A DNA stretch of 64,000 nucleotides, taken from assembly GCA_903884815.1 (NCBI GenBank), contig CAISGE010000015.1, forward strand, positions 22,958-86,957, written 5' to 3'. A model generated the notes under the pieces. That model ran no database searches. It saw only the letters and a list, made by a program, of their open reading frames with translations, and was not told the origin of the DNA. The stretch is from Candidatus Omnitrophota bacterium (lineage in GTDB: Bacteria; Omnitrophota; Omnitrophia; Omnitrophales; Aquincolibacteriaceae). The position numbers were made by a program, and so were the translations under genes. This document shows, in pieces, positions 1 through 18,485 of this stretch; position 1 is the stretch's first letter; each line of letters starts with the position of its first letter.

Positions 1-1042
1 TTCCGGTCTGTTCTCCCACGAATGTGACGACCGCGAAGGCACCGAGATTCGAGAAGAGATAAGCCAGCAGGTAGATCAAGACCGCGTCTCTTCCGAGAAC
101 CGAGAAGACGGCCAGGCCCATCAGGATATAGCCGGCCTGAGCGATGCTGGAATAAGCAAGGAAGCGCTTGATGTTGGTCTGGGAGACAGCGGTGATATTG
201 CCGATCGTCATGGTCAGGATGGAAAGAATCACAAGGACGGGACTCCAGACACCCTGAAAGTGCCAGAACGCCAGGTCCAGAACGCGTGTCAGGACCGCGA
301 AGCCGAGCGCCTTGGGCGCGACGGTGAGGAAAGCCGTGACGGGCGTGGGGGCGCCTTCATAAACATCCGGAGCCCACATATGGAACGGGGCCATGGAGAT
401 CTTGAAACCCAGACCGACAAAAAAGAAAAGAACGGCCGTAGCCGCAAGCGGCTTGAGTGACGCCGTAAAAAGGGCGTCTCCGATGACCTTGAGTTCCAGG
501 GATCCCGTCGCTCCGAAGAGTAGCGACATGCCGTAAAGCATGATGGCAGAGCAGACGCTCCCGAAAAGTAGATACTTGATCGCCGCTTCCTTGGACTTCG
601 GGTCATTCTTCAGGAAGCCCACAAGCAGATACGAAAGCAGGGAGACGAACTCCACGCCCAGAAAGATCATAAGGAGGTTGTTGGCGGCCGCGACGGTAAT
701 CAGCGCGAACGCCATAAAAAGGAACATGCCGTAGAATTCGCCTTCATAGCGGTTCCGGAGCGGGGTGTAACCCATCGCGAGGAGAAGCGTGATGCCCGTT
801 GCGGTTAGCGCGATGCACCGGAAAAAATAGGTGAAGGTGTCCAGTTCGAACATGCCAAAGAAAAGGGACATGGGTTTGGCCGGGATCTTGGCCAGACACA
901 GCGCGAGCACGAGGACCAGAAGGCAGAATTCACCGACCAGTTTCTTCTGTTTGACGAAGAAATCCAGAGTCAGCGCCGCGAACGCGCCGCCCAGCAAAAC
1001 CAGTTCGGGGATAAAATGTTTCAAGCTTTCGATAGCGTTCAT
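1..1042 (-). CDS. nuoN: NADH-quinone oxidoreductase subunit N (partial, C-terminus beyond window edge)
   Basis: Own minus-strand translation from ATG near 1042: MNAIESLKHFIPELVLLGGAF...FHMWAPDVYEGAPTPVTAFL, the antiporter-like NuoN signature. Absent from the ORF track because it runs off the window edge. Lies 5 nt after the nuoM stop. Confidence 0.85.
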   Translation of the reverse strand, partial: MNAIESLKHFIPELVLLGGAFAALTLDFFVKQKKLVGEFCLLVLVLALCLAKIPAKPMSLFFGMFELDTFTYFFRCIALTATGITLLLAMGYTPLRNRYEGEFYGMFLFMAFALITVAAANNLLMIFLGVEFVSLLSYLLVGFLKNDPKSKEAAIKYLLFGSVCSAIMLYGMSLLFGATGSLELKVIGDALFTASLKPLAATAVLFFFVGLGFKISMAPFHMWAPDVYEGAPTPVTAFLTVAPKALGFAVLTRVLDLAFWHFQGVWSPVLVILSILTMTIGNITAVSQTNIKRFLAYSSIAQAGYILMGLAVFSVLGRDAVLIYLLAYLFSNLGAFAVVTFVGEQTG

Positions 1043-1047
1043 TCGTT

Positions 1048-2511
1048 TTAAACTTTCAGGGTTTTAAGAAGCGCATCAAGCGTCGGGATCATGTAGTTCA
1101 GGATCATGCTCGGGTAAACGCCGATTACCACGATGAGCACCATCAGAGGCGCGAGCGTTAGGATTTCGACGAACTTGATATCGGTAAGCGAGGCCCATTT
1201 TGGGTTTAGTTTCCCGAGCAGGACGCGCTGGACCATGTAAAGAAGATAGGCCGCCGCGAGGATGATCCCCAGGGTTGAGAGACCGGTCGCCAGTTTTGAG
1301 TATTGGTAAGAGCCGAGCAGGACCAGAAATTCGCTCACGAATCCGCTTAACGCGGGAAGGCCTAGCGAAGCGAGTGCGAAAAAGGTCAGGATGCCCGCGT
1401 AACCCGGCATCTTGGCGCCGAGGCCGCCGAAGCCGTTCATGTCGCGGCTGTGAGAGCGGTCATAAAGGACGCCGACCAGCAAAAAGAGGCCTCCGGTGAT
1501 AGTGCCGTGCGTGAACATCTGGAGCATGGCGCCGCGAAAGCCATTCGCATTCAGGGCGGCGAGCCCCAGCAGGACAAATCCCATGTGGCTGACGCTGGAG
1601 TAGGCGACCATCTTTTTGAAATCTGTTTGGGCGAGAGCGACGAATCCGCCGTAGACGATGCCGATGATGGCCAGAGTTGCCATGGTCGGTTGGAACCAAT
1701 GCGTGGCTTCAGGGAACAACGGATAGCTGAACCGGAAGAACCCGTAGGTACCCATTTTAAGAAGGATGCCGGCCAGGATCACACTGATCGGGGTCGGGGC
1801 TTCGACGTGGGCGTCGGGAAGCCACGTGTGGAACGGGAAGATCGGGACTTTGACGGCGAAGCCAAGGAAAAACGCCATGAAAACGACCTGTTGGAAGATC
1901 AGGCTCCGGGGCATGCCCACGAGCTGGGTGATGTCGAAGGTGTGCGGGGTGGCGGCAAAATAAACGCTAAGGATGCCGAGCAGCATGAAAAGACCGCCCG
2001 CGAGCGTGAAAAGGAAGAACTTGATCGCGGCATATTCGCGTCTCGGGCCGCCCCAGATACCGATCAGAAAATACATGGGAACGAGCACCACTTCCCATAC
2101 CACGTAAAAGAGAAAGAGGTCGAGTGCCAGGAAGCTTGCCATCATGCCGGTCTCAAGCAAGAGGTAAAGGAAAAAATATTCCTTGTGGCGTTCCTTGATA
2201 CTGCCGGAAGCGAGGCACGCGAGGAGTGAAATGATCGCGGTGAGGCCGACCATGGGAAAACTGATCCCGTCCGTGCCGAGAAGGTACTGGACGTTGAATT
2301 GGGGGATCCAGGAGGTCCGTTCCATCATCTGGAATCCGGAGAGTCCCGGTTGGAAGAGCGTCAGGGCGTGACAAACGAGGCCCAGGACGACCGCGGTGGT
2401 CGCGAGGGCGATCCACTTAATGAGCGGAGCGGAGCTTTTCGGCACGAAAAGAATCGTGAACGCGCCGATGAGCGGCGTAAAGATGATCCAGGACAGGATA
2501 TGAGAAGTCAT
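1048..2511 (-). CDS. nuoM: NADH-quinone oxidoreductase subunit M
   Basis: 487 aa, polytopic. WLPDAHVEAPTP motif of complex I antiporter-like subunits. Operon context. Confidence 0.9.
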   Translation of the reverse strand: MTSHILSWIIFTPLIGAFTILFVPKSSAPLIKWIALATTAVVLGLVCHALTLFQPGLSGFQMMERTSWIPQFNVQYLLGTDGISFPMVGLTAIISLLACLASGSIKERHKEYFFLYLLLETGMMASFLALDLFLFYVVWEVVLVPMYFLIGIWGGPRREYAAIKFFLFTLAGGLFMLLGILSVYFAATPHTFDITQLVGMPRSLIFQQVVFMAFFLGFAVKVPIFPFHTWLPDAHVEAPTPISVILAGILLKMGTYGFFRFSYPLFPEATHWFQPTMATLAIIGIVYGGFVALAQTDFKKMVAYSSVSHMGFVLLGLAALNANGFRGAMLQMFTHGTITGGLFLLVGVLYDRSHSRDMNGFGGLGAKMPGYAGILTFFALASLGLPALSGFVSEFLVLLGSYQYSKLATGLSTLGIILAAAYLLYMVQRVLLGKLNPKWASLTDIKFVEILTLAPLMVLIVVIGVYPSMILNYMIPTLDALLKTLKV

Positions 2512-2651
2512 TTAATTCTCCTTTTGAGTGCCATGTGTCATTCTGAGGCCTGATTCTTGCTCTCGCAAGAAAGCATCAGGCCGAAGAATCTCATAGCGAG
2601 ATCCTTCGCCCTAAAGGGCTCAGGATGACCTGAAATAACAAACTCGCTATT
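2512..2651 (-). other. structured nuoL-nuoM intergenic spacer with two or more stable hairpins (one perfect 11-bp stem GACCTGAAATA...TATTTCAGGTC)
   Basis: Read directly. 140 nt inside the operon. Confidence 0.45.
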
Positions 2652-4598
2652 TCAGGTCAGTTTCAATTCCAAAATGATAAAAACAAGAAAACCCAGGAAC
2701 GCGAGCAGAAGATAATTCTGCACCACTCCTGTCTGGAAGCGCTTTGTGACCGAATTCAGGAAGTAGACCGCGGTCCCGAGAAAATTCATGAAGCCGTCCA
2801 CGATATAAGTGTCGATCCACTGTTTGACGCCGCTCAGGAACATCGTGACGCTGGCCGTGCCGTTCACGCCGCCGTCGACCACATTCGCGTCAAAGCCGAA
2901 GAGCAGGCGTCCGAGCGCGTGGAAAGGCTTGATGAGATACGTTACGTAGAACTCGTCAAAATAGAATTTGTTAAATGAAAGACGGTAAAAGGAGGGGAAT
3001 TTCTTCGCGACAGCCGGCGCCCAGGTCGTTTTTTTCAGATACATGACAAAGGCGAGCGTGATTCCGAGCACCGCGACGGCGATCGAGCAGGCCATGACCA
3101 CGGCGGAAGGTTCATATTCCGGATAATGGACCATCTCTGCCATGAATTTCTGGAACCAGTGATGCATGAAAGGAGAGCCGGGGATGCCGATCACCACCGA
3201 GCCGACGGCCAGGCACCAAAGGGGCAAGGTCATCAGGGCCGGAGATTCGTGGGCGTGGACGTCGTGATTGCGCGCCTGGCCGAAGAAGGTCAGGAAAATC
3301 AGACGGAACATATAGAACGCGGTCATGAAAGCGGTGAGAAGCAGGACCCCGAAGACCAGATAATTGCCGGAGCCGAACGCCGAGAGCAGGATCTCATCTT
3401 TGGACCAGAAGCCGGAAAGCGGCGGGATACCTGCCAGGGCGAGGCTCGCGATGATGAACGTGACGGCGGTGTGGGGCATCTTCTTGAAAAGGCCGCCCAT
3501 CTCGCGGATATCTTGAACGTGCGTGCCGTGGATCACGCTGCCCGCGCCAAGGAAGAGCAGGGCCTTAAAGAAAGCGTGCGTGATCAAATGGAAGGTGCCG
3601 GCGCCGAGGCCTGAAAGCCCCATGGCGGTCACCATGTAACCGAGTTGGGAGATCGTCGAGTAGGCGAGGACGCGCTTGATGTCGTTTTGGGTCAGCGCGA
3701 TAAAAGCCGCCATGAATGCCGTGATCGTGCCGATCGCGGTGACGATGGGCAGTACGTTCGGGACCAGCATAAAAAGAGAGAAGGAACGTGCCACGAGGAA
3801 AACGCCGGCCGCCACCATGGTCGCGGCATGGATGAGCGCACTGACAGGCGTCGGACCTTCCATGGCGTCGGGAAGCCACACGTGAAGCGGGAATTGCGCC
3901 GACTTGCCGATAGTGCCGCAGAAAATGAAAAGTGCCGCCATCGAGAGTAGCCCGGTGTTTAAGGCCGTATGGCCGACGTGTCCCGCGAGCAGCGTGTTCA
4001 TTTGAGCGAAGTCGAGCGTGCCGATCGCCGTGAAAAGGGTAAGGAAGCCGAGAAGAAAGCCGATGTCACCGACGCGCGTGGTGAGAAATGCTTTCTTGGA
4101 GGCGTTCGCGGCGGAATCCTTCTCGAAATAGAACCCGATCAAAAGATACGAGCAAAGCCCCATGATCTCCCACGCCATGAAAAAGAGCAGGTAGTTATTC
4201 GAGATCACAAGCGTGAGCATGGCGGACATGAAAAGCGAGACGTAAGCAAAGAACCGGCTGAAGCGCGGGTCGCCGTGCATATAGCCGGTGGCGTAAACCT
4301 GGATCAGGGTGCCGACGATCGTGACCATGAAAAGAAGCGTCGCGGACAGAGGATCCATCAGGTAACCGAACTTGAGAGGTGTGGTGCCGAGCATGAGCCA
4401 GGTAAAATCATTGGCGAAATGCGCGCCGCGGAACACCGCCCAACAGATGGGAAGCGCGATCACGCAGGCCACGGTACTCGTGGCCACCGAGAGCCACGCC
4501 GCGCGCTCTTTTAAGAAACGGGCGCCGAAGAAGATATTCACCACAAATGCGATGAAGGGAAGCACCGGAACCCAGATAAGATGATTGGCGGTTACCAT
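2652..4598 (-). CDS. nuoL: NADH-quinone oxidoreductase subunit L
   Basis: 648 aa. WLPDAMEGPTPVSALIHAATMV motif. Length typical of NuoL. Confidence 0.9.
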   Translation of the reverse strand: MVTANHLIWVPVLPFIAFVVNIFFGARFLKERAAWLSVATSTVACVIALPICWAVFRGAHFANDFTWLMLGTTPLKFGYLMDPLSATLLFMVTIVGTLIQVYATGYMHGDPRFSRFFAYVSLFMSAMLTLVISNNYLLFFMAWEIMGLCSYLLIGFYFEKDSAANASKKAFLTTRVGDIGFLLGFLTLFTAIGTLDFAQMNTLLAGHVGHTALNTGLLSMAALFIFCGTIGKSAQFPLHVWLPDAMEGPTPVSALIHAATMVAAGVFLVARSFSLFMLVPNVLPIVTAIGTITAFMAAFIALTQNDIKRVLAYSTISQLGYMVTAMGLSGLGAGTFHLITHAFFKALLFLGAGSVIHGTHVQDIREMGGLFKKMPHTAVTFIIASLALAGIPPLSGFWSKDEILLSAFGSGNYLVFGVLLLTAFMTAFYMFRLIFLTFFGQARNHDVHAHESPALMTLPLWCLAVGSVVIGIPGSPFMHHWFQKFMAEMVHYPEYEPSAVVMACSIAVAVLGITLAFVMYLKKTTWAPAVAKKFPSFYRLSFNKFYFDEFYVTYLIKPFHALGRLLFGFDANVVDGGVNGTASVTMFLSGVKQWIDTYIVDGFMNFLGTAVYFLNSVTKRFQTGVVQNYLLLAFLGFLVFIILELKLT

Positions 4599-4906
4599 TT
4601 CAGTAAATGAACCTCATCGGCTTGAACAGTTTTGCGGATCCGGTAAAGGGCCAGGACGATCGCGAGGCCCACGGCCGCCGCGGTCGCGGCAAGGGCGATC
4701 ACAAAAAGAGCGAAGATTTGCCCCGTTTCCGGCGAGAGAGACGTGTATTTGGAAAAGGCGATCAGGTTGATATTGGAGGCGTTCACCATGAGCTCGATCG
4801 AGATCAGAATGCCGATGATGTTGCGGCGCACGAGTGCCCCATAGAGACCGATCGCGAAAAGGAGCAAGGAAAAGATCAGAATGTGTTGCAAGGGGATCGC
4901 GATCAT
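4592..4906 (-). CDS. nuoK: NADH-quinone oxidoreductase subunit K
   Basis: 104 aa, 3-TM protein. LISIELMVNASNINLIAF matches NuoK. Overlaps the nuoL start by 7 nt. Confidence 0.85.
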   Translation of the reverse strand: MIAIPLQHILIFSLLLFAIGLYGALVRRNIIGILISIELMVNASNINLIAFSKYTSLSPETGQIFALFVIALAATAAAVGLAIVLALYRIRKTVQADEVHLLKW

Positions 4907-5427
4907 GGCCGTTCCTCCGGAGCATCTTTTTTCGCGATGACCACGGTGCCGATCAGCGCCGCGAGGAGAACAATCGAAATGACCTCAAACGGGAACACAT
5001 ATGTTCCCATCAAGGCTTCGCCGAGGCCCATTGCCGAAGTTTTGGCCTTGAGAGCTGCCTCGGTTACCGGCCAGGGCGTCTTCAGGATCAGGGCGATGAG
5101 TGCCGTCACAAATCCCGCGAGGCCCACGATCGCCGGAAGGCTTTGAGCATTGTTCTGGCGGACGGTCTTGCCCGCGAGATGTTCGGTGAGCATGATCGCG
5201 AAGACCACCAGAGTGATCACACCGCCGACATAGAGCAGGATCTGCACCCCGGCGAGGAATTCCGCCTGAAGTGCGATGTAAATGCCGGCCGTCCCGATCA
5301 GCGCCGCCGCGAGACAAAGCGCGCAGTGGAACAAGTTCCGGAACGTGACAACTCCCAGGGCGAAGACAAGGATTGCTGCCATCACGGCATAAATCCCGAA
5401 TTTTGCGCCAAGTTGTAATAGTTCCAT
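4903..5427 (-). CDS. nuoJ: NADH-quinone oxidoreductase subunit J
   Basis: 174 aa membrane protein between nuoK and nuoH. 4-nt overlap with nuoK. Confidence 0.8.
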   Translation of the reverse strand: MELLQLGAKFGIYAVMAAILVFALGVVTFRNLFHCALCLAAALIGTAGIYIALQAEFLAGVQILLYVGGVITLVVFAIMLTEHLAGKTVRQNNAQSLPAIVGLAGFVTALIALILKTPWPVTEAALKAKTSAMGLGEALMGTYVFPFEVISIVLLAALIGTVVIAKKDAPEERP

Positions 5428-5480
5428 AGCATTTCTTTCTGGAGTTATCCCCGTTTCAAGCGGCGGGGATGACGGTAATA

Positions 5481-6650
5481 CTAATCGGCTAATACGTAAT
5501 TACGTTTTTCTGGGACAAAGACACGATTGAGCTTGACCAGCATATAAAGCATCGCGGCCAGGATCATGATCGAAAAAAGCCATGCCGCGGAAGCCGAAGT
5601 GAACTGCCAGAGCGCTGTCAGCAGAATATTGACCAGCGTCAGCGGCAAAAGGAATTTCCAGGCGAAGGCCATCAAGTGGTCCACGCGAAAGCGGGGGAAC
5701 GTGCCCCGGAACCAGATCATGATACAGATGAGCGCAAGCGTCTTGCCGAAGAACCAGACCCATGACGGAAGGAAGGGACCTTGCCAGCCGCCTAGAAAAA
5801 GGGTCGCGGCGATCCCGCAAAGGGTGAACGCGTTCATGTATTCGGCCATATAAAAGAGCGCGAATTTCATGCCGCTGTATTCCGTGTGAAAACCCGCGAC
5901 GAGTTCGGATTCCGCTTCCGGGAGGTCGAAGGGCGGGCGATTGCACTCAGCGGTGGCGCAAAGGAAAAAGACAATGAATCCCACGATACCCCACGGCGTG
6001 AAGATAAACCAGTTGAGGCCGAAACTTCCGGCCTGGGTCAGGACGATCGTGTTGGTCGAAAGGCTCTGGCTCATCATGATCGCCGGAACGGCGGCCAGGG
6101 TCATGGGGACTTCGTAGGAGATCAACTGCGCGGCGGTGCGCATGCCGCCCAATAGGGAATACTTGTTTCGCGAGGACCAGCTGGCCATAAAGATAGGCAG
6201 AATGGTGATCGAAGAAACGGCAATAAAATAAAGAAAACCAATATTGAGATCGGCGGCCGTCATCTGGCGGCCGAAGGGGACGACGACAAAGATCATAAGG
6301 GCCGGGACCACGGTCATGATCGGGGCGAGGAGATGGATGAGCTTATCCGCGTTCGCGGGCACGATATCTTCTTTCGTGAACATCTTGATGCCGTCGGCGA
6401 TCGGCTGGAGAAGACCCCATATCCCGACGCGGTTCGGGCCGTAGCGGTTCTGGATGCGGCCGATCACTTTGCGTTCGAGAAGCGTCAGATACATCATGAT
6501 CACCGGACCGAGGCAGAGGATCGCGACGCCGCTGATCACGATAGACGCGAGCACGACGATCCAGACCGGCAGGAATTGCCCCAAAAGGGCAAGGATCCAG
6601 GCCTTCGCGGTCACGAAGATCATATCGATGAACGATCCGATGTTTTCCAT
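5481..6650 (-). CDS. nuoH: NADH-quinone oxidoreductase subunit H
   Basis: LLERKVIGRIQNRYGPNRVGIWGLLQPIADGIKMF signature of NuoH. The N-terminus is possibly over-extended; an alternative start is near M10. Confidence 0.9.
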   Translation of the reverse strand: MENIGSFIDMIFVTAKAWILALLGQFLPVWIVVLASIVISGVAILCLGPVIMMYLTLLERKVIGRIQNRYGPNRVGIWGLLQPIADGIKMFTKEDIVPANADKLIHLLAPIMTVVPALMIFVVVPFGRQMTAADLNIGFLYFIAVSSITILPIFMASWSSRNKYSLLGGMRTAAQLISYEVPMTLAAVPAIMMSQSLSTNTIVLTQAGSFGLNWFIFTPWGIVGFIVFFLCATAECNRPPFDLPEAESELVAGFHTEYSGMKFALFYMAEYMNAFTLCGIAATLFLGGWQGPFLPSWVWFFGKTLALICIMIWFRGTFPRFRVDHLMAFAWKFLLPLTLVNILLTALWQFTSASAAWLFSIMILAAMLYMLVKLNRVFVPEKRNYVLAD

Positions 6651-7210
6651 TATTTTATTTCCTGGGGCGGGGGCGGTGTGGCAGCTGCCTTTTTCTTGTC
6701 TTCCGCGGTTTTCCGTTTTTGATCCACGGCCGCGGCCATTGCCGGACGGATCTTTCTGAAATAATCGTTGGAGCGCGCCAGGGCCTCTTTGCCGCGGATC
6801 AGGCTCCGGGGTCCCGCCTGCGAAGTGATCTCAAAGGTATGGTCCATATAGATCGAATCGAAGGGACAGACCTCTTCGCAGATCCCGCAATTCATGCAGA
6901 GACTGTAATCGATGTCAAAGACGGCGGGCTTTCGCGCGGGCTTTCCGGCCGCGTCGGTGGCCATTTCAATATGAATGCACTTGGGCGGGCATTCCCGCTC
7001 ACAGATCCCGCAGGCCACACAGCGGATCTGGTCCGGCGCGCCGTCATAGACAAGAAAGGGGAGGTTGCGGTAATTCTCGGCTAGCTTTTCGCGCTCTTCG
7101 GGATACTGGACGGTGAAGATGCCGCCATTGTCCCGGTCGCGGTAATAAGAAGTCAGGAAATTCTTGAGCGTGACCATCATGCCTTTGAAAACGCCTGCGC
7201 CGAAAATCAT
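6650..7210 (-). CDS. nuoI: NADH-quinone oxidoreductase subunit I (2x[4Fe-4S] ferredoxin-type)
   Basis: Two CxxCxxCxxxCP motifs: [12 protein letters not shown] and [12 protein letters not shown]. Lys-rich C-terminal tail. Confidence 0.9.
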
Positions 7211-8355
7211 CGGTCCGTCTCCCCGAGCACAATGTCAATGCTCCCCAGGATGATGATGGCATCGGCGATCTTTTGGCCGAGGCACATCTCTTCCAAAACG
7301 GTCAGGTTGATGAGGGACGGGGCGCGCACGTGATAGCGCCAGGGTTGCGGCGTGCCGTCGCTGACGACATAAAACCCGAGCTCGCCTTTGGGGGATTCCA
7401 CGCGGCCATAGGCCTCGCCCACCGGCGGCTTGAAATTGCGCGGCATTTTGATGAAAGGGACTGTCTTTTTGTTCAGGATCTCGCCCTGAGGGATCTTGGC
7501 CAGGGCCTGTTCAAGGATCTTCAGACTTTCGCGAATCTCGAGGATGCGGACATAATACCGGTCGTAGACATCGCCCTTTTTCCCGAGCGGGATCTTGAAA
7601 TCAAAACGGTGGTAAATGCTGTAGCCGTCCACTTTGCGAATGTCGTAATTGACGCCGGAGGCGCGAAGCACCGGGCCCGTGATGCCGGCATTGGTCGCGG
7701 TTTCGGGGGAAAGCACGCCGACATTCTGGCAGCGCATGCAGAGGATCTCATTTTTCGAGAGTAGGGTCTCGAATTCTTCGAGGAAGGCCGGGAATTTCGC
7801 GACGATCTGATGGATCGTCGCGAGGTGGAGCGCCGTAAGATCGCGCTTCACGCCGCCGAAGCGGAAATAATTATTCATGAGGCGCGAGCCGGTGACCTCT
7901 TCAAAAAGGTCGAGGATCCTTTCCCGCTCGCGGAATGCATAAAGAAGCGGCGTGAAAAAAGCGCCGAGGTCATTCAACATAAACCCGATCACGGTGATGT
8001 GGTTCACGATACGGGCGAGTTCCGCCATGATGACGCGGAGATATTCCGCCCGTTCCGGGACTTCGAGGCTGGCGAGCTTTTCGACCGTGAGCGCGTAGCC
8101 AAAGTTATTGGCTAGGGCGTTCACGTAATCCAGCCGGTCCGTATAGGGCATGATCGCCGCATAGGGGAGATTCTCCGCGATCTGTTCGTGATTGCGGTGA
8201 AGGTACCCGAAGATCGGCCTCAGGCCCCGGATCTTTTCGCCCTCGGTCTGCACGATCATGCGGAACACGCCGTGGGTAGACGGATGCTGTGGCCCGAAAT
8301 TGATCTCGAGGATATCCGAGCCGTCTAATTTTTTTGTTTCGATGATATTTGGCAT
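7207..8355 (-). CDS. nuoD: NADH-quinone oxidoreductase subunit D (49 kDa)
   Basis: [18 protein letters not shown]-terminal signature, 382 aa. Directly adjacent to nuoI/nuoH with no nuoEFG in between. Confidence 0.9.
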
Positions 8356-8386
8356 AATTTATCTAAGAAATTAACGCTTCCTTGGG

Positions 8387-8462
8387 CACAACGCGCAACG
8401 GTCAACGTTCAACGTCAGGACTCAAATTAAGTACGTTGTGCGTTGCGCGTAGTGCGTTGTGC
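8387..8462. repeat. heptamer-periodic palindromic element (HPE) copy 1, intra-operon nuoC|nuoD
   Basis: Left arm CACAACG CGCAACG GTCAACG TTCAACG, a loop, then right arm CGTTGTG CGTTGCG CGTAGTG CGTTGTGC. Confidence 0.75.
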
Positions 8463-9049
8463 TAGTTTCTTGGTTTTTCCGGCTTTCCAACCAAAGCCCG
8501 TTTTCCTGCAGCGGCGAGTTCTGCCGCTTTTGCCTTCATGTCCTCCGGGATCGCGATCCCCCTGGAGGCTAGCCATGTGATGTCCGCAGCTTCCAGGACG
8601 TCCACATCCTCCTGCTGATAATCTTTGCGCAAAGGGTAGCCTTCGAATCCTTCCCACATGAACAGGCGGCGTGGGTCGGGATGACCTTTATAAATGATGC
8701 CGAAGGTGTCAAAGGCTTCGCGTTCCTGGAGGTTCGCGCTACGGTAAATTGGTACAAGCGACGGGATCTCCGGGTGATTCTTGGGAACGCGGACGCGCAG
8801 CGTGAGGGGCCCACGCTTCAGGGCCATTGAATAAAGGTGATAAACCGATTCCAGAGAGTCCAGATAATCCGCGCCGGTCACCGAGGAAAGATAGTCCAGC
8901 CGGAATTTCGGACTTTGCTTCAGGAAAAGGGCGACGCGCGGCAGATCCTTCGGGTTCTCGAGCAGAAGGGAATTCAGGACGCGGCGGAGTTTCACGTCCG
9001 GCAGTCCCGCATGGAGTTCTTTTTGAACTTCTTCCATAAAGAGAGGCAT
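8462..9049 (-). CDS. nuoC: NADH-quinone oxidoreductase subunit C (30 kDa)
   Basis: FDTFGIIYKGHPDPRRLFMWEGFEGYPLRKDY motif. Start trimmed to internal ATG (MPLFMEEV), 1 nt after the nuoB stop. The track start at 9097 would overlap nuoB by 46 nt. Confidence 0.85.
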   Translation of the reverse strand: MPLFMEEVQKELHAGLPDVKLRRVLNSLLLENPKDLPRVALFLKQSPKFRLDYLSSVTGADYLDSLESVYHLYSMALKRGPLTLRVRVPKNHPEIPSLVPIYRSANLQEREAFDTFGIIYKGHPDPRRLFMWEGFEGYPLRKDYQQEDVDVLEAADITWLASRGIAIPEDMKAKAAELAAAGKRALVGKPEKPRN

Positions 9050-9050
9050 G

Positions 9051-9779
9051 TTAGACGGCTCCCGGAGCGGCGGGCTTGACGGCGGCCGCATGTTCAAGGT
9101 CCGGGGCTTTCAGTTTCTTCCCGATGAGTATCGTGGCACCGTAATGCTCCCGGCGTGGGTCCTTCTTTGCAGGCTGCCACACCTCGGGATTGAATTTCGG
9201 AACGAGCCCATGAGGTCCAAGCTCAGGGATCGGAAATTCCCGCTTGAGGCCCTTTTGATACCATTCTGCTTTCAGAATCTCCTGGGATGCGATCTTTTTT
9301 TGAAGTTCCATGAGTCCGTGAAGCAGCGCCTCGGGCCGCGGGGGACACCCGGGCAAATGAACGTCGACGGGGATGTAGCGGTCGATCCCGCGAAGGACAT
9401 TGTAACCGTCAATAAAAGGACCGCCGGAAATCGCGCAGGCGCCCATGGTAAGAACATATTTTGGTTCGGGCATCTGATTGAAGAGGCGGACGACCTGAGG
9501 AGCCATCTTTTTGGTGACGGTTCCGGAAATGATCATGAGGTCGGCCTGGCGGGGTGAGGCACGGAAGAGCTCGGCGCCGAAGCGGGCAATATCGTAACGG
9601 GCGCAGGCCGCCGCGATCATCTCGAACGCACAGCAGGCCAGCCCGAACTGCATGGGCCATACGGACGATCGGCGTCCCCAATTGTAGAGGAAATCGAGCG
9701 ACGTCCAGATCACGCCTTTTGAGGCGAGTTCGGCGCGCAGCGTTTCATCGACTTCGGTCTTATTTTCTGTGAAGGCCAT
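9051..9779 (-). CDS. nuoB: NADH-quinone oxidoreductase subunit B (20 kDa, Fe-S) with ~70-aa C-terminal extension
   Basis: [12 protein letters not shown]...[10 protein letters not shown]...LPGCPPRPE cysteine motifs. 242 aa versus about 170 typical. Confidence 0.9.
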
Positions 9780-9796
9780 TTTTAGTAAGGAGTCTT

Positions 9797-9858
9797 GAGT
9801 ACGGAGTACGGCGTTTTTTCGTTGCGCGGACCGCCGGTCGCCTTACGCCGTACGAGGT
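9797..9858. repeat. HPE variant (GAGTACG GAGTACG GCG ... CGCCGTACGAG), intra-operon nuoB|nuoA
   Basis: Read directly. Confidence 0.65.
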
Positions 9859-9861
9859 TCA

Positions 9862-10233
9862 TTAATCCCACTCGAGCATTTTCTTTTTCCAGGCGTAGAT
9901 CAGGCCGAACGCGAGGATGGCTATAAAAAGGGCCATTTCCACGAAAGCAAAGAGCCCCAGGCGTTTGAAGGCCACGGCCCAGGGATAGATAAAGATTGTT
10001 TCAATGTCAAAAATGACGAAGATCAGGGCGTAAAGGTAATACTGGACGTGATACTGCATCCAGGGATCACCTTTGGAGGCCAGACCGCACTCATAAGTCG
10101 CCTGTTTGTCGGACGAGGGCTTCTTTGGGGCCATAAGCCAGGCCAATGCCAGAGGCGCAACGGCGAAGATCAGGGCAAAAATGAAAAAAAGGCCCACAAA
10201 TAGGTACTGATAGGAATAGGAGGCACTCGACAT
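9862..10233 (-). CDS. nuoA: NADH-quinone oxidoreductase subunit A
   Basis: 123 aa, 3-TM protein. YECGL...YLYALIFVIFDIE motif. First gene of the operon. Confidence 0.85.
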   Translation of the reverse strand: MSSASYSYQYLFVGLFFIFALIFAVAPLALAWLMAPKKPSSDKQATYECGLASKGDPWMQYHVQYYLYALIFVIFDIETIFIYPWAVAFKRLGLFAFVEMALFIAILAFGLIYAWKKKMLEWD

Positions 10234-10293
10234 AGGGCGGGATTATAGGCAAATCCAGGTCGGGTGTCCAGCAAAGAGGCGGTGCCTGGCCAA

Positions 10294-10409: not shown

Positions 10410-10919
10410 TTAAATTGTGCAGCCTTTCGAGGAGGTTATATCGCCAGGGTTGGCGGGTTCTATCGGTTTGAAGACCATTTGGCATTGCCAATTTATATCA
10501 ACGGAACCATCAAATCCGCCGGAATCATAGCTAACATAATCCCCGGTGTGATCGTTTCTTCCCTCGACCTGGAAGGTAGAGCCAGACACGCTCGCATAGT
10601 ACCGGTACTTCCAATTTTTTGATTTATCAATGCCCGTGAGCCCAAGATCCTGCCAACTCGACTCGTTTTTGTCAAAACCCTCGTCCCAAGGATCCGAACA
10701 AACCTCGAAGACATCTCCCGGGAGTATGTAAGTTCCTTGGAAGTCGTAGTATCTTTCTGCGGCGCGTTTAATGGCGCCGACCATTTGAAGGGCTTCGGCG
10801 GCTTTGGCTTTTTCAGTCTGCATGAGCATGCGGGGTACGATGAGTGACGCCAAAATGGCAATAATGACGACCACGATCAATACTTCAACGAGCGTAAAAC
10901 CTCTCTTCGGATTTTTCAC
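10410..10919 (-). CDS. type IV pilin-like protein (prepilin-type N-terminal cleavage/methylation domain), paralog 1
   Basis: Leader VKNPKRG then FTLVEVLIVVVIIAILASLIVPRM. GTG start with an AGGAG RBS 7 nt upstream. C-terminus ends KGCTI like paralog 6. Confidence 0.75.
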   Translation of the reverse strand: MKNPKRGFTLVEVLIVVVIIAILASLIVPRMLMQTEKAKAAEALQMVGAIKRAAERYYDFQGTYILPGDVFEVCSDPWDEGFDKNESSWQDLGLTGIDKSKNWKYRYYASVSGSTFQVEGRNDHTGDYVSYDSGGFDGSVDINWQCQMVFKPIEPANPGDITSSKGCTI

Positions 10920-11012
10920 AAGATTTCTCCTGAGGAATGACGCGAAACCCCTGTCTGGTGATTCGTCATCCACCTGCTAAAACTGTAGCACGAATTCAGA
11001 AAGGGGGGAGAC

Positions 11013-11091
11013 GGGCGGGAAACGTGGAAGGGTGAACGTTGAACGATTGAAAGAAGCGGGTGATGCCTCCGTTAACCGTTCCCCTTTTTTT
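11013..11091. repeat. HPE copy 4 in the divergent region between pilin paralog 1 and the GT-C-like gene
   Basis: GGGCGGGAAACG TGGAAGG GTGAACG TTGAACG ... CCGTTAACCGTTCCCC T7. Confidence 0.7.
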
Positions 11092-11169
11092 ATAAAAGTA
11101 TTCCCCCCGCGGAAGCTCTTGAGTACAATACCCGCGATTTTCTTTTTCTTAAGGTCACGAAAGGCTCTT

Positions 11170-12726
11170 GTGAAAACCCGACATTTGTTTTTATCTTTAA
11201 TGGCTGCTCTGGTTTACGCCTTCGGTCTCACCCCGACTCTCGACCCGGACATGGGGTGGCATTTGGGGACCGGGGAGTGGATTCTCCAACACGGGTTTCC
11301 GAGGACGGATCCTTTTTCCTTCACCGTGGCCGGCCATTTTTGGACTGCTCACGAATGGCTTTCCGAGGTGATCATGCGTCGCCTGTATGGTTTGGGGGGA
11401 TATCCGGCGATGATGATCTCTTTCGCTCTTGTGGGTGTGCTGGTCTTTGGCCTTGTCTACTGGACCTGTCCCCGGAGGCCGTACATTGCCGGGGCCCTTG
11501 CTTTTTTCGCCCTTCTGACGTCCCGTTTTCTCTGGGGTGCCCGCCCGCAGATCTTCAATGTCCTGATGATGGCCGCCTTTCTTCTGCTGATCCAGGGCGT
11601 GAGAATGCGTCGTTTCCACTGGAAGTTCCTCTACACGCTTCCTTTGCTCGTCATGATCTGGGTAAACCTTCACAGCGGGTACCTGCTTGGGCTTGTGGTG
11701 ATGGTCGCTTTTTTGACGGGAGACCTCTTCCAGATCTTTGTACTCCATTCAGAAGAAGGGACCTTGGGAGAAAAAGGTTTGGCGCATTTTTCGGGAATTT
11801 TAATTTTGTGTCTGGCCGCAGTGGGGATGAACCCTACGGGCTATAAGATCCTTCTCTATCCTTTCGAGACCCTTTCCAGCAAGATCATGCAAACGACCAT
11901 TTTGGAGTGGCAGTCGCCGATCTTTCAGCATTGGAACTACTGGCCTTTTCTCGGCGTGATGTCGCTTGGGGCAGCCGCATTTTTACTTTTTCCGCCCAAA
12001 CGCAATATCGCCAATTTTCTGATCTACGCGGGATCCATGGCTATGGGGCTTTTCGCCCGCAGGCACATCCCTTTTTTCGCGGTCGCTGCGATCCCGATGA
12101 TCGCGCTGGCCGTGAGCGAGGGGTTTCCCGTTCCTGCCTGGGTGAACCGGGGGAGTGATGTTGCTCTGACGCAGACCGCAAGAACGTTCCGCTATCTTTT
12201 GAACGTGTTTTTTGCGATGGTCATTTTGGTGGGTGTCTTTTCCTGGACGGGGTATCGCTTGAATCATAATCCATCCGCGATGGAAAAATCATTTCCGGTC
12301 AAGGCGTTCCAATTTATCAAGGGCAATGGGGCTATTGCCCGGCTCAGGATCTATAATGAGTACGTCTGGGGTGGGTACCTGATCTGGAACGGTTTCCCGG
12401 TTTTCATGGATGGGCGCGCGGACCTTTACGGGGGTAAATTCTTTTTCGATTACCTTTTCGCGCATGATCTGCGGGGAGGGGCGGTAGGCATTACGCGCTA
12501 TCTCGACAGCTATGGTGTCGACGGGATCCTCGTTCCTCCGGGAGGAATTTTGGGGAATGCTTTTCTCTCGAATCCGGAATGGCGGCTTGCCTACCGGGAT
12601 TCCACCGCCGTTTTATTTCTTCGCAAGGTGCCTTTTTCCGTACCTCCCGTGACCCAGAGTCCGGAGCGTTTCTATTCGCCGCTGAAAAGTAATAATCTTG
12701 AGGGGCCGAGGCGCCCTCATTCATGA
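11170..12726 (+). CDS. polytopic membrane protein, GT-C-like (unknown function), paralog A
   Basis: GTG start chosen to align with paralog B (24 aa before the DPDMGWHL loop). Many TM helices. C-terminal soluble domain with NEYVWGGYLIWNGFPVFMDGR. Confidence 0.55.
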   Translation: MKTRHLFLSLMAALVYAFGLTPTLDPDMGWHLGTGEWILQHGFPRTDPFSFTVAGHFWTAHEWLSEVIMRRLYGLGGYPAMMISFALVGVLVFGLVYWTCPRRPYIAGALAFFALLTSRFLWGARPQIFNVLMMAAFLLLIQGVRMRRFHWKFLYTLPLLVMIWVNLHSGYLLGLVVMVAFLTGDLFQIFVLHSEEGTLGEKGLAHFSGILILCLAAVGMNPTGYKILLYPFETLSSKIMQTTILEWQSPIFQHWNYWPFLGVMSLGAAAFLLFPPKRNIANFLIYAGSMAMGLFARRHIPFFAVAAIPMIALAVSEGFPVPAWVNRGSDVALTQTARTFRYLLNVFFAMVILVGVFSWTGYRLNHNPSAMEKSFPVKAFQFIKGNGAIARLRIYNEYVWGGYLIWNGFPVFMDGRADLYGGKFFFDYLFAHDLRGGAVGITRYLDSYGVDGILVPPGGILGNAFLSNPEWRLAYRDSTAVLFLRKVPFSVPPVTQSPERFYSPLKSNNLEGPRRPHS

Positions 12727-12741
12727 GATCCCATTAAATCT

Positions 12742-14241
12742 ATGACGAAGCGATCGATCTTATTCCTGTTTTTCGTGACGGTTCTCTTCTGCCTGGGGTT
12801 GGTGGAGACGGTGGATTCGGACCTTTGGTGGCATTTGAAGGTGGGTGAATCCGTTTTTACCCACGGGATCCCTCGCGTGGATATTTTTTCATTTACGGCG
12901 GTGGGGCAGCGTTTCATTGATCAGGAGTGGTTGTCTGAAGTGCTCCTTTATTTGATGAACGCCTGGGCCGGAATGCCGGGGCTGATGATCTCTTTCGCGT
13001 TTCTTTCGGTGATCACGTTTGGATGCGTCTATTTCACACGGGCCGGTCTCCCGCTAGTGGGGATCCCGATGACGATCCTCGCGTGTTATTCCTCCAAATT
13101 TCTATGGCAAGCCCGGCCGCAGATCTTCAATATTCTCATGCTCGCCGCGTTGCTCTGGCTCCTTCAAGGCGTTCGGGACCGGAAAAGATCCTGGAGATGG
13201 CTTTACGTGCTTCCGGTCTTGTCGCTTTTTTGGGTCAATATGCACAGCGGGAACTTGATGGGGATCGTGGTGATGGCTCTGGTGCTTGCCTGCGATGCTT
13301 TCCAGGGGGGAGTGCTTCATTCGCGGGCTGAAGGTATCCTCCGGGGCGTCGAAATCAAACATTTTGCCGTCGTTTTTTCTCTCTCCGTGCTGGCATCTCT
13401 TTGCAATCCGGTGGGGTATAAGATCTTCGTTTTTCCTCTTCAGACCCTAAGCACTAAAGAGATACAGTCTTTTATCATGGAATGGCAGTCCCATGATTTT
13501 CACAATCCGTTCGCGTGGGGATTCCTGGTGATGCTCGTGGCCGGTGCGATGAGCCTCATGTTATTTCCGAAGAGGTTGGACCTGGCCACCGCGTTTCTGT
13601 ATGCCGGCTCCATGGCCGGAGCGCTCATGTCGCGCCGTCATTCGCCTTTCTTTTCCGTGGTTGCGACTCCCGTGATGATCCAGATGATCTCAAGCGGGAT
13701 CACTTCCGCCCGGTGGCGGGCATTTCTCTCTCTTGAATTCAGTTGGAATTTCCCAAGAGGGGTGCGCTATGGGGTCTTTTCGCTTCTCGCGGGTTTGATC
13801 TTCGTCGGTTCCTTTGTCTGGAGCCAGCACAAGATCGCGGGATATCATCGCTCGATCTCGCAGTATTTTCCCGTGAAGGCGGTGGAGTTGCTCAAGGGGA
13901 GAGGGTACTCCCCAAAAAGGGTCCTCAACGAATATGCCTGGGGCGGGTATTTGATCTGGAACGGTTTTCCTGTTTTTATTGACGGGCGCACGGAGGTCTA
14001 TGGCGCGCAATTTTTCAAGGATTATTTGGACACGATGGGTTCAAGGGAGTTCTCACCCAAGGTTCGGGGACAGTTGGACCGTTGGGGGATTGAGTATTGC
14101 CTTCTCAATGCACGAAGCCCGCTGCGCAATGCCTTGAAAATGACCGGCGAGTGGCAGGAAGTGTATCAAGATGGCTTGTCCAGCATCGTGATCCGAAAAC
14201 CTCTTCCGCCGGGTTCTGCGGTCAAGCCGGAGGGAAAATGA
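12742..14241 (+). CDS. polytopic membrane protein, GT-C-like (unknown function), paralog B
   Basis: Clear paralog of the preceding gene. Shared blocks: DSDLWWHL, QEWLSEV, FLWQARPQIFN, HSGNLMG, NEYAWGGYLIWNGFPVFIDGR. Confidence 0.55.
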   Translation: MTKRSILFLFFVTVLFCLGLVETVDSDLWWHLKVGESVFTHGIPRVDIFSFTAVGQRFIDQEWLSEVLLYLMNAWAGMPGLMISFAFLSVITFGCVYFTRAGLPLVGIPMTILACYSSKFLWQARPQIFNILMLAALLWLLQGVRDRKRSWRWLYVLPVLSLFWVNMHSGNLMGIVVMALVLACDAFQGGVLHSRAEGILRGVEIKHFAVVFSLSVLASLCNPVGYKIFVFPLQTLSTKEIQSFIMEWQSHDFHNPFAWGFLVMLVAGAMSLMLFPKRLDLATAFLYAGSMAGALMSRRHSPFFSVVATPVMIQMISSGITSARWRAFLSLEFSWNFPRGVRYGVFSLLAGLIFVGSFVWSQHKIAGYHRSISQYFPVKAVELLKGRGYSPKRVLNEYAWGGYLIWNGFPVFIDGRTEVYGAQFFKDYLDTMGSREFSPKVRGQLDRWGIEYCLLNARSPLRNALKMTGEWQEVYQDGLSSIVIRKPLPPGSAVKPEGK

Positions 14242-14660
14242 GGGTGGTCGAAGTCGGTTGTGCGATCATTCACAAGAACGGACGGATTTTGATCGCGCAG
14301 AGACATTTACAGGATAGTTTCGGAGGCCTCTGGGAATTCCCGGGAGGCAAGCGGGAAGAGGGCGAAACGATCGAGGCGTGTTTGTCCCGTGAAGCCCAGG
14401 AGGAATTGGGCGTGGGAGTTTATCCCGAGCGCTTGCTGTGCCGGAGAGAGCATGGGAATGAGGACCGCAGGATCTCGCTCTTCTTTTTTTTCTGTAAATG
14501 GGAGAACGGGGCGCCACGGGCGATCGATTGCAAGGATTTCCGCTGGGTGGGTCCGGAGGAGATCCGAAGTTATACTTTCCTTCCCGGGGATCTGGAAGTC
14601 GTGGAGGATCTGATCCTTCACTGGGAAGAGTATTTCAAAACGGCGGAAATGGGCCGATAA
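14238..14660 (+). CDS. NUDIX hydrolase (MutT-like)
   Basis: Nudix box GGKREEGETIEACLSREAQEELGV. ATG overlaps the upstream stop (ATGA). Confidence 0.8.
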   Translation: MRVVEVGCAIIHKNGRILIAQRHLQDSFGGLWEFPGGKREEGETIEACLSREAQEELGVGVYPERLLCRREHGNEDRRISLFFFFCKWENGAPRAIDCKDFRWVGPEEIRSYTFLPGDLEVVEDLILHWEEYFKTAEMGR

Positions 14661-14743
14661 TAGGGAAGTCTCTTGCGCTGAGGGACTGGAGATCTGAAAA
14701 GAAACGCGTTCGATATCAAGTGAAAACTGAGTCCCGGAGAAAA

Positions 14744-16591: not shown

Positions 16592-16622
16592 CGAGGATTG
16601 TCTTTTTTATAGGGGAGGCAGC

Positions 16623-16988
16623 ATGAGCAAGAAAATTTTAATCGTCGAGGATGACAGTGATTTTCAGGATATCTATTCTCTCTTTCTCCGGGGGGAGTCC
16701 TATCAGGTGCTGACGGCAGGTAACGGTCAGGAGGGTCTGGAGGCCCTTGAAAAGGAAACGCCCGATCTGATCATCCTGGACCTTATTATGCCCGTGATGG
16801 ATGGAGAAACCTTTTATGTACGCCTCCGCGAACAGTCCAAGTGGAAATCCATCCCGGTTCTTATCGCCAGCGTGAATGACAAGATGCCTGCCCGCATTAC
16901 AGAACTTGGCGGCATTGCCGGCAATCTCAGGAAGCCTTTCCATATCGATACCCTGCTTGGCAAGATCCATGAGTGTTTGAAAGTGTAG
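16623..16988 (+). CDS. response regulator, stand-alone receiver domain
   Basis: MSKKILIVEDD...DLIILDLIMPVMDG receiver motifs. 121 aa with no output domain. Confidence 0.8.
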   Translation: MSKKILIVEDDSDFQDIYSLFLRGESYQVLTAGNGQEGLEALEKETPDLIILDLIMPVMDGETFYVRLREQSKWKSIPVLIASVNDKMPARITELGGIAGNLRKPFHIDTLLGKIHECLKV

Positions 16989-17164: not shown

Positions 17165-17391
17165 TAAGGGGTAGTTGGGACGGTCCTGATTTATATTTTA
17201 TTTTTCATAATGGTAATCAGGACAGCCCCAATCACAGCTTCACCTTGATTGATTGGAATTGGGACTGCCCCAATTCCAATTTCGTTAAAATTGATAGGTA
17301 TTGGGACTATCCTTGTCTTTGATTTGTTTCTGGAGGGTGACAAGGATTGCCCCAATTTCCGCTTTGCGGAAATTAATAGGAATTGGGACTA
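17165..17391 (+). promoter_or_regulatory. array of at least 6 ATTGGGAC / GCCCCAAT half-sites forming 3-4 inverted-repeat operators plus other hairpins, upstream of the tandem AsnC-like gene
   Basis: Includes TTGGAATTGGGAC-T-GCCCCAATTCCAA, ATTGGGACTATCCTTGTC...GACAAGGATTGCCCCAAT, ATTTCCGC-TTT-GCGGAAAT, and GGAATTGGGACTATGG at the start codon. Confidence 0.5.
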
Positions 17392-18485
17392 TGGATGAGA
17401 AAGATCGTCTTTTATTGACCCATCTTCAGAGCGGGCTCCCGCTAACGCCCCGGCCTTTTGCCACTTGGGCGGCGAAGCTCGGGACAGACAGCGCCGACCT
17501 GCTGGTGCGCATTCAGCGCCTTAAAAAAGAAGGGACTTTGGGGGGGGTGAAGGCGGTTCTCGACGCGCGCATCTTCCATTACCAAAGCGCTTGGGTTGCG
17601 CTACGGTTTGGCACAGAAGATCTCGCGAGCCGCACAGAAGTCCTTTGGCAGCATCCGGGGGTGACCTACGGCTGCGAGAGGGAGCACGAGTTCAACGTCT
17701 GGCTCTTTATTTCGGCTCCCGAGAATCATGATCTTGAGCTTCATGTCCGTTGCCTTGCAAAGATCTCCGGTGCGGAGAAAGTTCTGTTCCTGCCCGTGCG
17801 GCGTGTGTACAAAGGAACGGATCTTCTCAGTTCTCTGGGCCCCGAAACATTTTCTGAGATGGACGAGCGCTTCGAAAAACGTCAGCCGGGTCATGGGGCG
17901 GAGTTGACGACCGAGGACATCGATATGATACGGCGGCTTCAAGAGCCGTTTCCGCTCACGGATGAACCTTATCAAAAGATCGCTGCGGATCTCGGGATCA
18001 CGGAGTTTCAGGCGATTGAGCAGATGAAGTCTCTTGTCGCGAAAAAATGTCTCAAGAGGATTGGAAGTTTCTTGAAACCTGTTGGGCGGATCGGACAGGA
18101 GCATCAAGCTCCTGCCGAAGCCGTGCTGAAGGATTGGCCTTCAGTGAAAGTCCCGGGAGCCGGGAACCTGGTGGTCTGGCAGATCCCCGAGGAAAAACTG
18201 GAGCGAAGCGGGCCCGAGATCGCCGCATTCCGCGAGGTGATTTACGCGGACCGTCGGCCGGCCTATCCGGAATTCCCGTACTCGCTTTATACGACGATCC
18301 GGGCTGAAACACCCGAGGCCCTTGAATTGATCACAAGACGCATGCAGGACCGGATCGGGAAATGGCCGCACCGGGTGATGGTGACGACCCGGGAGCTTAA
18401 GAAAACCGGGATGAAATACTTTCCGAAAGAATTGGACGCGTGGTGGCAGCAAAACCGGCATATAAATGAGACCGCATTTAACTGA
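17392..18485 (+). CDS. tandem AsnC/Lrp-type HTH domain protein (NirDL/AhbAB-like two-repeat architecture)
   Basis: Two repeats with the D..D..LL..LQ..PL...PF...A..LG pattern: DEKDRLLLTHLQSGLPLTPRPFATWAAKLG, then EDIDMIRRLQEPFPLTDEPYQKIAADLG. Confidence 0.55.

Follow-up and report, generated by a model that had tools for sequence, protein, structure and literature searches.

An eleven-subunit complex I-like operon without N-module genes, and its conserved NuoB extension, in a Candidatus Omnitrophota genome

The window analysed here is a 64,000-nucleotide (64-kb) stretch of a Candidatus Omnitrophota contig (CAISGE010000015.1, assembly GCA_903884815.1). Its first 10,233 positions carry, on the minus strand, a cluster of eleven nuo genes that, judged from their sequences, encode a functional complex I-like quinone reductase. 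Our preferred reading, to which we give a probability of roughly 0.6, is that this is an 11-subunit enzyme without the N-module (the NuoE, NuoF and NuoG subunits), that it takes electrons from a low-potential soluble carrier, with ferredoxin as the leading candidate, and that the long C-terminal tail of its NuoB subunit forms a strap on the Q-module. The operon is of the known 11-subunit kind and not a new system or machine.

The operon encodes a full Q-module, in which NuoB carries cluster N2, NuoD the quinone site and NuoI two [4Fe-4S] clusters, with NuoC as the fourth member. It also encodes a full membrane arm of the proton-pumping kind, made up of NuoA, NuoH, NuoJ and NuoK with the three antiporter-like subunits NuoL, NuoM and NuoN. 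In the enzyme as we picture it, the exposed NuoI cluster would be reduced by a low-potential carrier in solution, ferredoxin most likely, and electrons would then pass from N6b to N2 and on to menaquinone at the site formed by NuoD, NuoB and NuoH. The 67-residue NuoB tail would run as a mostly extended strap over the Q-module surface towards NuoC and NuoI, and the extensions of NuoB, NuoC and NuoI would stabilise or cap the surface on which the N-module sits in 14-subunit enzymes. The genes and their order, the residues of the cofactor and quinone sites, the constraint on the tail, its co-occurrence with the NuoC extension and the natural NuoB-NuoC fusions are direct observations, whereas we infer which donor and which quinone are used, which way electrons flow and how the tail runs in three dimensions.

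The operon and the type of enzyme it encodes

The eleven genes, all in 1-10233, follow one another on the minus strand in the order A-B-C-D-I-H-J-K-L-M-N. NCBIfam gives the expected Nuo family for all ten proteins that are complete in the window, and the curated cut-offs are exceeded by NuoB, NuoD, NuoH, NuoK, NuoL and NuoM. The nuoA product (9862..10233, 123 amino acids) has NF005839 as its best NCBIfam match (E 2.5e-43), and the identical gene of L001, a 149-kb contig 100% identical to the window, matches Pfam Oxidored_q4. NuoB (9051..9779, stop included; 242 amino acids) scores 340.9 bits against NF011394, which has a cut-off of 312. For nuoC (8462..9049) the start is most likely the ATG at 9049, one base past the nuoB stop, rather than an upstream TTG; this gives a protein of 195 amino acids, the length also called in L001, that matches TIGR01961 and other NuoC families. 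NuoD (7207..8355, 382 amino acids) reaches 447 bits with NF004739 (cut-off 360). NuoI (6650..7210, 186 amino acids) matches NuoI families, and NuoH (5481..6650, 389 amino acids) scores 350 bits with NF004741 (cut-off 305).

The remaining genes encode the rest of the membrane arm. NuoJ (4903..5427), which matches NuoJ families, has 174 amino acids from its first ATG and 159 from position 5382, the start called in L001. NuoK (4592..4906, 104 amino acids) just passes the NF004322 cut-off (129.2 bits against 128), while NuoL (2652..4598, 648 amino acids; NF005141, 686 bits against 556) and NuoM (1048..2511, 487 amino acids; TIGR01972, 600 bits against 263.8) pass theirs easily. The last gene, nuoN (1..1042), starts with an ATG at 1042 and has 347 of its 468 codons inside the window, the remainder lying past the edge. 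In L001 the full gene (18738-20144, 468 codons) is followed by a pseudouridine synthase gene (PseudoU_synth_2), so the operon ends at nuoN.

The initial annotation of this DNA had described eleven nuo genes in 1-10233 without nuoE, nuoF or nuoG, and the family matches and reading frames bear this out, with nuoN partial in the window. It had also put nuoH directly after nuoD. The motifs and families give a different order, in which nuoD is followed by nuoI and nuoI by nuoH. The overlaps, of 4 nucleotides between nuoD and nuoI and of 1 nucleotide between nuoI and nuoH, mean that no gene is hidden between the three and leave no room after nuoD for N-module genes. A decaying pseudogene cluster is ruled out, as every open reading frame is intact and purifying selection is strong.

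The sites expected of a working Q-module are kept. The NuoB core comprises residues 1-175, and its N2 cysteines C49, C50, C114 and C144 are invariant in alignments of 21 and 55 homologues. A motif scan of NuoI found two CxxCxxCxxxCP motifs, with all eight ferredoxin-type cysteines (the N6a and N6b ligands) kept. NuoD aligns with Thermus thermophilus Nqo4 without gaps across the quinone site, His28 corresponding to H38 and Tyr77 to Y87, and has the quinone-site motifs GPQHPSTHG and RLDY. In the same alignment NuoD lacks the cysteines that would bind NiFe, and its C-terminus, DIVLGETDR, has no cysteine pairs. Because the quinone-site residues are kept and NuoD has no NiFe cysteines, the enzyme reads as a quinone reductase and not as a membrane-bound hydrogenase.

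Other enzymes built on the same core were considered and set aside. A Group 4 membrane-bound [NiFe] hydrogenase (Ech, Mbh or Hyf) is excluded by the missing NiFe cysteines, and the hydrogenase models score far lower. Fpo is excluded as well, since the FpoC, D, H, I, J, K and L models fall far under their own cut-offs. The Ndh models of cyanobacterial-type NDH-1 fail to reach their own cut-offs and give lower scores than the Nuo models (NdhH 375 bits against a cut-off of 583, compared with NuoD 447 against 360), and no gene for an oxygenic subunit of the NdhL-Q, S, V or O type was seen flanking the operon or in the window. The initial annotation had left F420 or a Hox-type module open as the electron input. 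Neither finds support within the window, where the Fpo models score low and the cluster holds no FpoF-like gene.

NuoE, NuoF and NuoG, which a canonical 14-subunit complex I would have, are absent from the operon. Nor were N-module genes found anywhere in the 64-kb window, in which ferredoxin-type cysteine motifs are limited to nuoI and a ferredoxin gene at 42199. The same holds more widely. We compared loci over ~20 kb of DNA each, scoring gene order where that DNA spans the operon and mapping the window's eleven proteins onto each locus. Across ~60 related loci the order A-B-C-D-I-H-J-K-L-M-N is kept without insertions, and no N-module gene lies within 10 kb of any of these operons. The exceptions to the order are a short contig without detectable nuoI (L060) and a locus with a gap of 1.8 kb between nuoI and nuoH (L064). 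The A-B-C-D-I-H order and the lack of nuoEFG recur in a sister lineage, in the operons L071 and P0206, whose contigs measure 2.87 and 1.55 Mb. The D-I-H order, which departs from the usual D-H-I and is found in ~60 Omnitrophota loci and in the sister lineage, thus looks like a signature of the clade. Consistent with an enzyme that lacks the N-module, a 2026 preprint reports nuoG in none of 176 complete Omnitrophota genomes, and the full operon in none. The initial assignment to the N-module-less type of complex I-like enzyme agrees with this shared architecture in ~60 related Omnitrophota genomes.

Extensions of NuoB, NuoC and NuoI

Alignments of NuoB to solved NuoB, PSST and NdhK chains, including T. 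thermophilus Nqo6, stop at about residue 175, where the WYQ of the window's protein corresponds to the C-terminal WYR of PSST. What follows is a C-terminal extension, residues 176-242 (9054..9254, minus strand). The 242-residue NuoB and the tail sequence quoted in the initial annotation are exact; the length given there, ~70 residues, becomes ~67 when measured by alignment to the structure chains. Residues 176-226 are strongly conserved in the alignments of 21 and 55 homologues, the conserved stretch ending in R.E.YG..I..GKK.KAP, and the last ~15 residues are variable and rich in proline and alanine. The tail is basic, with a net charge of +5 and an isoelectric point of 9.8.

Against close relatives the tail has a proportion of nonsynonymous differences (pN) of 0.04-0.17 and a proportion of synonymous differences (pS) of 0.57-0.90, with synonymous sites near saturation. 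As pN is so far below a nearly saturated pS, the codon comparison indicates that the tail is translated and under strong purifying selection.

No Pfam family matches the tail. NF011394, a NuoB family of 264 positions, spans its first ~25 residues, and up to that point NuoBs with a long tail are on record already. Nearly all NuoB homologues with a source name are labelled Candidatus Omnitrophota or Omnitrophica. When a tail-only alignment was run against one genome per GTDB species, it found 66 loci: 42 titled Omnitrophota or Omnitrophica, 1 Candidatus Taenariivivens, which NCBI places in Omnitrophota, 21 titled 'uncultured bacterium' and 2 Planctomycetota metagenome-assembled genomes. A tail-only HMMER search of 1.8 billion 50%-identity representatives gave three matches (two fragments and one unrelated repeat protein) and is uninformative on distribution, long-tailed NuoBs probably being hidden in that set behind tail-less cluster representatives. 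On these alignments and scans the tail is a conserved, lineage-specific extension, found in the GTDB scan only in Omnitrophota-type genomes.

NuoB is not the only extended subunit. NuoC has a C-terminal extension of ~45 residues (DVLEAADITWL...GKRA...KPEKPRN), and the loci fall into two classes by its presence. In the 45 loci of the long class NuoB has ~243 residues and NuoC ~195, and the NuoC extension is kept. In the six loci of the short class (L058, L059, L061, L063, L064 and L066) NuoB has ~212 residues, stopping shortly past NPEVW, and NuoC has ~153 and no extension. A single locus, L056, is intermediate between the two. Across the loci, the distal part of the NuoB tail and the NuoC extension come and go together. 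NuoI also extends, by ~35 residues, beyond the point at about residue 151 where its alignment to TYKY stops; this extension has a net charge of +5, and its motif IRPxxAxxIDxKRKxAEEKKKAA is kept in every locus examined.

In some relatives NuoB and NuoC are fused in frame. One such fusion (L068, 9506-10822) is backed by a fragment from another assembly (P0046). More distant relatives have further NuoB-NuoC fusions (P0125, P0127, P0128, P0131 and P0133) and a NuoB-C-D fusion (P0130); the fusion in L023 may be a frameshift artefact. The linker between NuoB and NuoC in the distant fusions is a motif related to the proximal part of the tail, SEFPVPEYG.HDL.PP.NP.VW. As the two proteins can be joined in frame, the end of the tail must sit near the NuoC N-terminus.

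Structure prediction of the tail, which the initial annotation had proposed as a check, gave models of low to moderate confidence. An AlphaFold2 (AF2) model of single-chain NuoB from the 21-sequence alignment had a mean predicted local distance difference test score (pLDDT) of 51, with the core poor too. With 55 sequences the mean pLDDT rose to 62.9, and residues 181-220 were modelled as coil with short helical turns (pLDDT 59-71), the end falling below 50. A Foldseek search of the Protein Data Bank with the NuoB model matched the PSST/NuoB/NdhK core alone, the long NdhK alignments having root-mean-square deviations of 8-12 Å. The AF2 result is consistent with, and no proof of, a tail that needs partner subunits to order it.

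A guide to what such a tail may do comes from Escherichia coli complex I, where NuoB, NuoI and NuoF each end in an ordered, extended staple on the surface (Kolata and Efremov 2021, PMC8357420). The one on NuoB buries 1095 Å2 on NuoI and also contacts NuoD and NuoF (PMC8357420). The modelled coil of the Omnitrophota tail resembles the E. coli NuoB and NuoI extensions. By analogy, the tail would most simply be a surface strap on the Q-module, and a structural role seems the most economical reading. We put this reading first because of the co-occurrence with the NuoC extension, the NuoB-NuoC fusions, the linker motif in those fusions and the E. coli staples.

The electron donor and alternative readings

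Moparthi and Hagerhall (2011, PMC3144371) described the 11-subunit form of complex I as widespread in bacteria and archaea, identified no dedicated electron-input partner for it and suggested that several donors could dock on its Q-module. Ferredoxin is the donor favoured by work on Desulfitobacterium (Willemin et al. 2024, PMC11238625). In one of the two sister-lineage operons (L071) nuoA is immediately preceded, on its own strand, by genes for the alpha and beta subunits of a 2-oxoacid:ferredoxin oxidoreductase; regions 6235-9173 and 17429-20693 of L071 cover these genes and a second NuoM-like gene. As for the acceptor, the window encodes an MqnE-like radical SAM protein, which scores 429.8 bits against a cut-off of 434.55 and whose sequence suggests menaquinone synthesis by the futalosine route.

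The window holds one ferredoxin gene (42199-42510, plus strand; 103 amino acids), which is FdxA-like (66.7 bits with FdxA_fam, cut-off 65). The initial annotation had described a standalone 2x[4Fe-4S] ferredoxin here. The reading frame is correct but the type is not, as the cysteine pattern (Cx7Cx3CP, then CxxCxxCxxxCP) and the FdxA match indicate a 7Fe protein with one [3Fe-4S] and one [4Fe-4S] cluster. Its core has a net charge of -7, and it ends in a lysine-rich C-terminal tail of ~25 residues. The opposite strand has a longer open reading frame (42061-42915), which is likely to be spurious. Standing among unrelated genes 32 kb from the operon, this ferredoxin is a candidate donor and no more.

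Several points weigh against a ferredoxin-fed enzyme with a NuoB strap. Our direct evidence for the absence of NuoEFG covers the 64-kb window, and absence from the whole genome rests on the 2026 preprint about other Omnitrophota genomes, which reports KEGG hits to NuoE-like proteins in 24 and to NuoF-like proteins in 43 of its 176 genomes. The main Omnitrophota paper (PMC10066038) drew NADH as the donor. The ferredoxin oxidoreductase neighbourhood is a single case, from a different lineage, and is absent from the window, where neither a ferredoxin-reducing enzyme nor a ferredoxin is linked to the operon and the sole ferredoxin gene is at a distance of 32 kb. Because the six short loci are probably one clade, a single evolutionary event may account for the joint occurrence of the NuoB and NuoC extensions. 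Finally, the NuoB models are single-chain models of low to moderate confidence, so the path proposed for the tail is an inferred one.

The alternative closest to the preferred reading is that the NuoB tail and the NuoC and NuoI extensions form a platform for docking the donor, with a basic cap over the NuoI cluster orienting an acidic ferredoxin or flavodoxin. The initial annotation had raised the NuoB tail as a possible docking site, and docking would be compatible with a strap. The charges fit, the NuoB tail and the NuoI extension each having +5 and the ferredoxin core -7, which makes a contribution to docking plausible. The position may fit as well: in E. coli the extension of NuoB packs mostly against NuoI and gets as far as NuoF, and the NuoC C-terminal loop of T. 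thermophilus touches NuoG (PMC3144371), so by analogy the extensions would converge on the open N-module face. The same idea has been raised for the NuoC extensions of Bacillaceae (Moparthi and Hagerhall, PMC3144371). However, E. coli has similar extensions with its N-module in place (PMC8357420), the proximal tail motif is a plain NuoB-NuoC linker in relatives, the last ~15 residues of the tail are of low complexity and variable, and no partner gene is linked to the operon. Docking as originally stated is not supported; the observations point to a structural role first, and we consider it unlikely. We are more doubtful still of its extended form, in which the three extensions would make up an Omnitrophota-specific basic cap with a built-in ferredoxin or flavodoxin dock, a fused equivalent of the NdhS, NdhV and NdhO subunits of NDH-1 that evolved independently in a non-photosynthetic lineage.

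The preferred reading of a carrier-fed enzyme must also be set against a split but conventional complex I, in which nuoEFG lie elsewhere in the genome and the enzyme is an NADH:quinone oxidoreductase. The NuoE- and NuoF-like KEGG hits of the preprint and the published reconstruction with NADH as donor (PMC10066038) would both fit this picture. Against it stands the lack of any N-module gene within 10 kb of the operon at ~60 loci or in the 64-kb window, and we judge it improbable. In PMC10066038 complex I was scored by PF00346 (NuoD) alone, and the assignment of NADH looks unsafe for this enzyme.

Just as improbable, in our estimate, is that the enzyme runs mainly in reverse, the proton motive force driving electrons from menaquinol up to ferredoxin for use in biosynthesis, a role suggested for complex I forms of chemolithoautotrophs that lack the N-module or have extra pumps. 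For unusual forms of complex I in Nitrospirota, reverse running has been proposed as a source of reduced ferredoxin (PMC9040806); the second NuoM-like gene of the sister lineage would suit it, as would the ferredoxin- or flavodoxin-dependent IspG and IspH encoded in the window. The window's operon, though, has the ordinary three antiporter-like subunits, and no autotrophy genes were seen in the window. For the respiratory classes of Omnitrophota a heterotrophic life is predicted, based on glycolysis and pyruvate:ferredoxin oxidoreductase (PMC10066038), which favours oxidation of ferredoxin.

Surroundings of the operon and its place in the family

Upstream of the nuoA ATG, at a distance of 9 nucleotides, the minus strand has a promoter-like site, TGGACA-17-TATAAT (10242..10270). 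It matches 11 of 12 consensus positions, but a scan for the consensus found 2 sites where shuffled sequences give 1.1, so the match is one to a consensus and not evidence of function. A hairpin 3' of the upstream pilin-like gene precedes the site. If the site is real, the transcript would be nearly leaderless. An Rfam search of the window matched no RNA family.

A search for partner genes beside the operon in the 66 loci found a histidine kinase, a response regulator and a NUDIX gene only, all divergent, together with FIST and FNR-like genes in one subclade. In the window the first three lie on the plus strand at 14238-16988, encoding a NUDIX protein, a HAMP-PAS histidine kinase and a response regulator, and they are neighbours of the operon in 24-32 related loci. 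These three divergent genes may regulate the operon. Two adjacent membrane proteins of ~500 residues each, without a Pfam match, are encoded at 11032-14241 (plus strand) and stay beside the operon in close relatives.

The FIST-domain gene (FIST N and FIST_C, ~392 amino acids) lies directly upstream of nuoA on the same strand in one Omnitrophota subclade (L034:7815-8990, plus strand, and 12 other loci). The FIST gene overlaps nuoA in L057, and the window has no copy of it. Its product could be a sensor or a twelfth member of the operon. The FNR-like flavoprotein gene (FAD_binding_6 and NAD_binding_1, 238 amino acids) is also upstream of nuoA on the same strand (L034:6627-7343, plus strand, and 8 other loci) and absent from the window. 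It is mostly 1.5-2 kb from nuoA, with ~0.6 kb and ~5.4 kb in two loci, and an opposite-strand NUDIX gene lies between. The flavoprotein could link NAD(P)H to a carrier. An apparent gene of 105 amino acids between the FIST and FNR-like genes was rejected as an antisense shadow of the NUDIX gene.

Elsewhere in the window, plus-strand regions at 17301-18485, 19948-22171 and 44229-45395 encode a fused AhbA/AhbB siroheme decarboxylase of the alternative haem pathway, IspG, the MqnE-like aminofutalosine synthase and IspH; as a set, these genes are a hint that haem and menaquinone are made. The minus strand has five genes for type IV pilin-like proteins that bear an N-terminal methylation motif (10410-10973, 36095-36610, 37006-37536, 37813-38667 and 41534-42064). 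The products of the first and last are 54% identical and share a nearly identical N-terminal stretch of ~45 residues (GFTLVEVL...EKAKAAEA), within which residues 25-60 are identical. Two large open reading frames, of 1394 and 932 amino acids, lie at 47543-51727 (plus strand) and 52416-55214 (minus strand).

The closest known relatives in composition are the 11-subunit enzymes of Desulfitobacterium hafniense, Dehalococcoides, the Bacillus cereus group, Chlorobi and Crenarchaeota (PMC3144371, PMC11238625), which have the same eleven subunits and no nuoEFG. They share a complex I-type NuoD, with a quinone site and no NiFe, and ferredoxin as the favoured donor. Lineage-specific extensions of Q-module subunits are known among them too, one example being an N-terminal extension of NuoC in Bacillaceae. 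The Omnitrophota enzyme differs in having nuoI before nuoH and C-terminal extensions on NuoB, NuoC and NuoI, and its host, an uncultured nanobacterium of the PVC (Planctomycetes-Verrucomicrobia-Chlamydiae) group, is unlike the other hosts.

Extensions as such are familiar from E. coli, where those of NuoB (25 residues) and NuoI (42 residues) have an extended form with only a few turns of helix, run along neighbouring subunits and make the peripheral arm more stable, and where the NuoC-NuoD linker also contacts NuoB (PMC8357420). E. coli differs in having the N-module, its extensions also contacting NuoF, NuoG and NuoE. The Omnitrophota tail is longer (67 residues), is paired with a NuoC extension and has no sequence similarity to its E. 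coli counterpart. Cyanobacterial and chloroplast NDH-1 likewise has an 11-subunit core without NuoEFG and takes electrons from ferredoxin, and its NdhK is also long (237 residues, of which 200-212 are modelled), but its gene organisation differs from that of the Omnitrophota operon. Fpo and the Campylobacter-type Nuo combine a complex I core with other inputs, FpoF with F420 in the one and flavodoxin through substitute subunits in the other. In contrast, the Omnitrophota operon has no FpoF or FpoO and no substitute genes between nuoD and nuoI.

The sister lineage (L071 and P0206) shares the D-I-H order, the lack of nuoEFG and a NuoB extension with the motif SEFPVP.YG.HDL.PP.N..VW. It differs in a shorter NuoB of ~230 residues and in a second NuoM-like gene, which makes twelve genes and four antiporter-like subunits; some of its members have NuoB-NuoC fusions. 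Two NuoM-like matches were also seen in L067. We found no description, in the literature searched, of the D-I-H clade signature, the co-occurring extensions of NuoB, NuoC and NuoI or the NuoB-NuoC fusions. These are new, as variations within a well-studied family.

Reconstructions of Omnitrophota metabolism have taken the donor of complex I to be NADH. If the carrier-fed reading is right, the energy metabolism of Omnitrophota would need to be redrawn, with ferredoxin or another carrier, instead of NADH, feeding the menaquinone pool.

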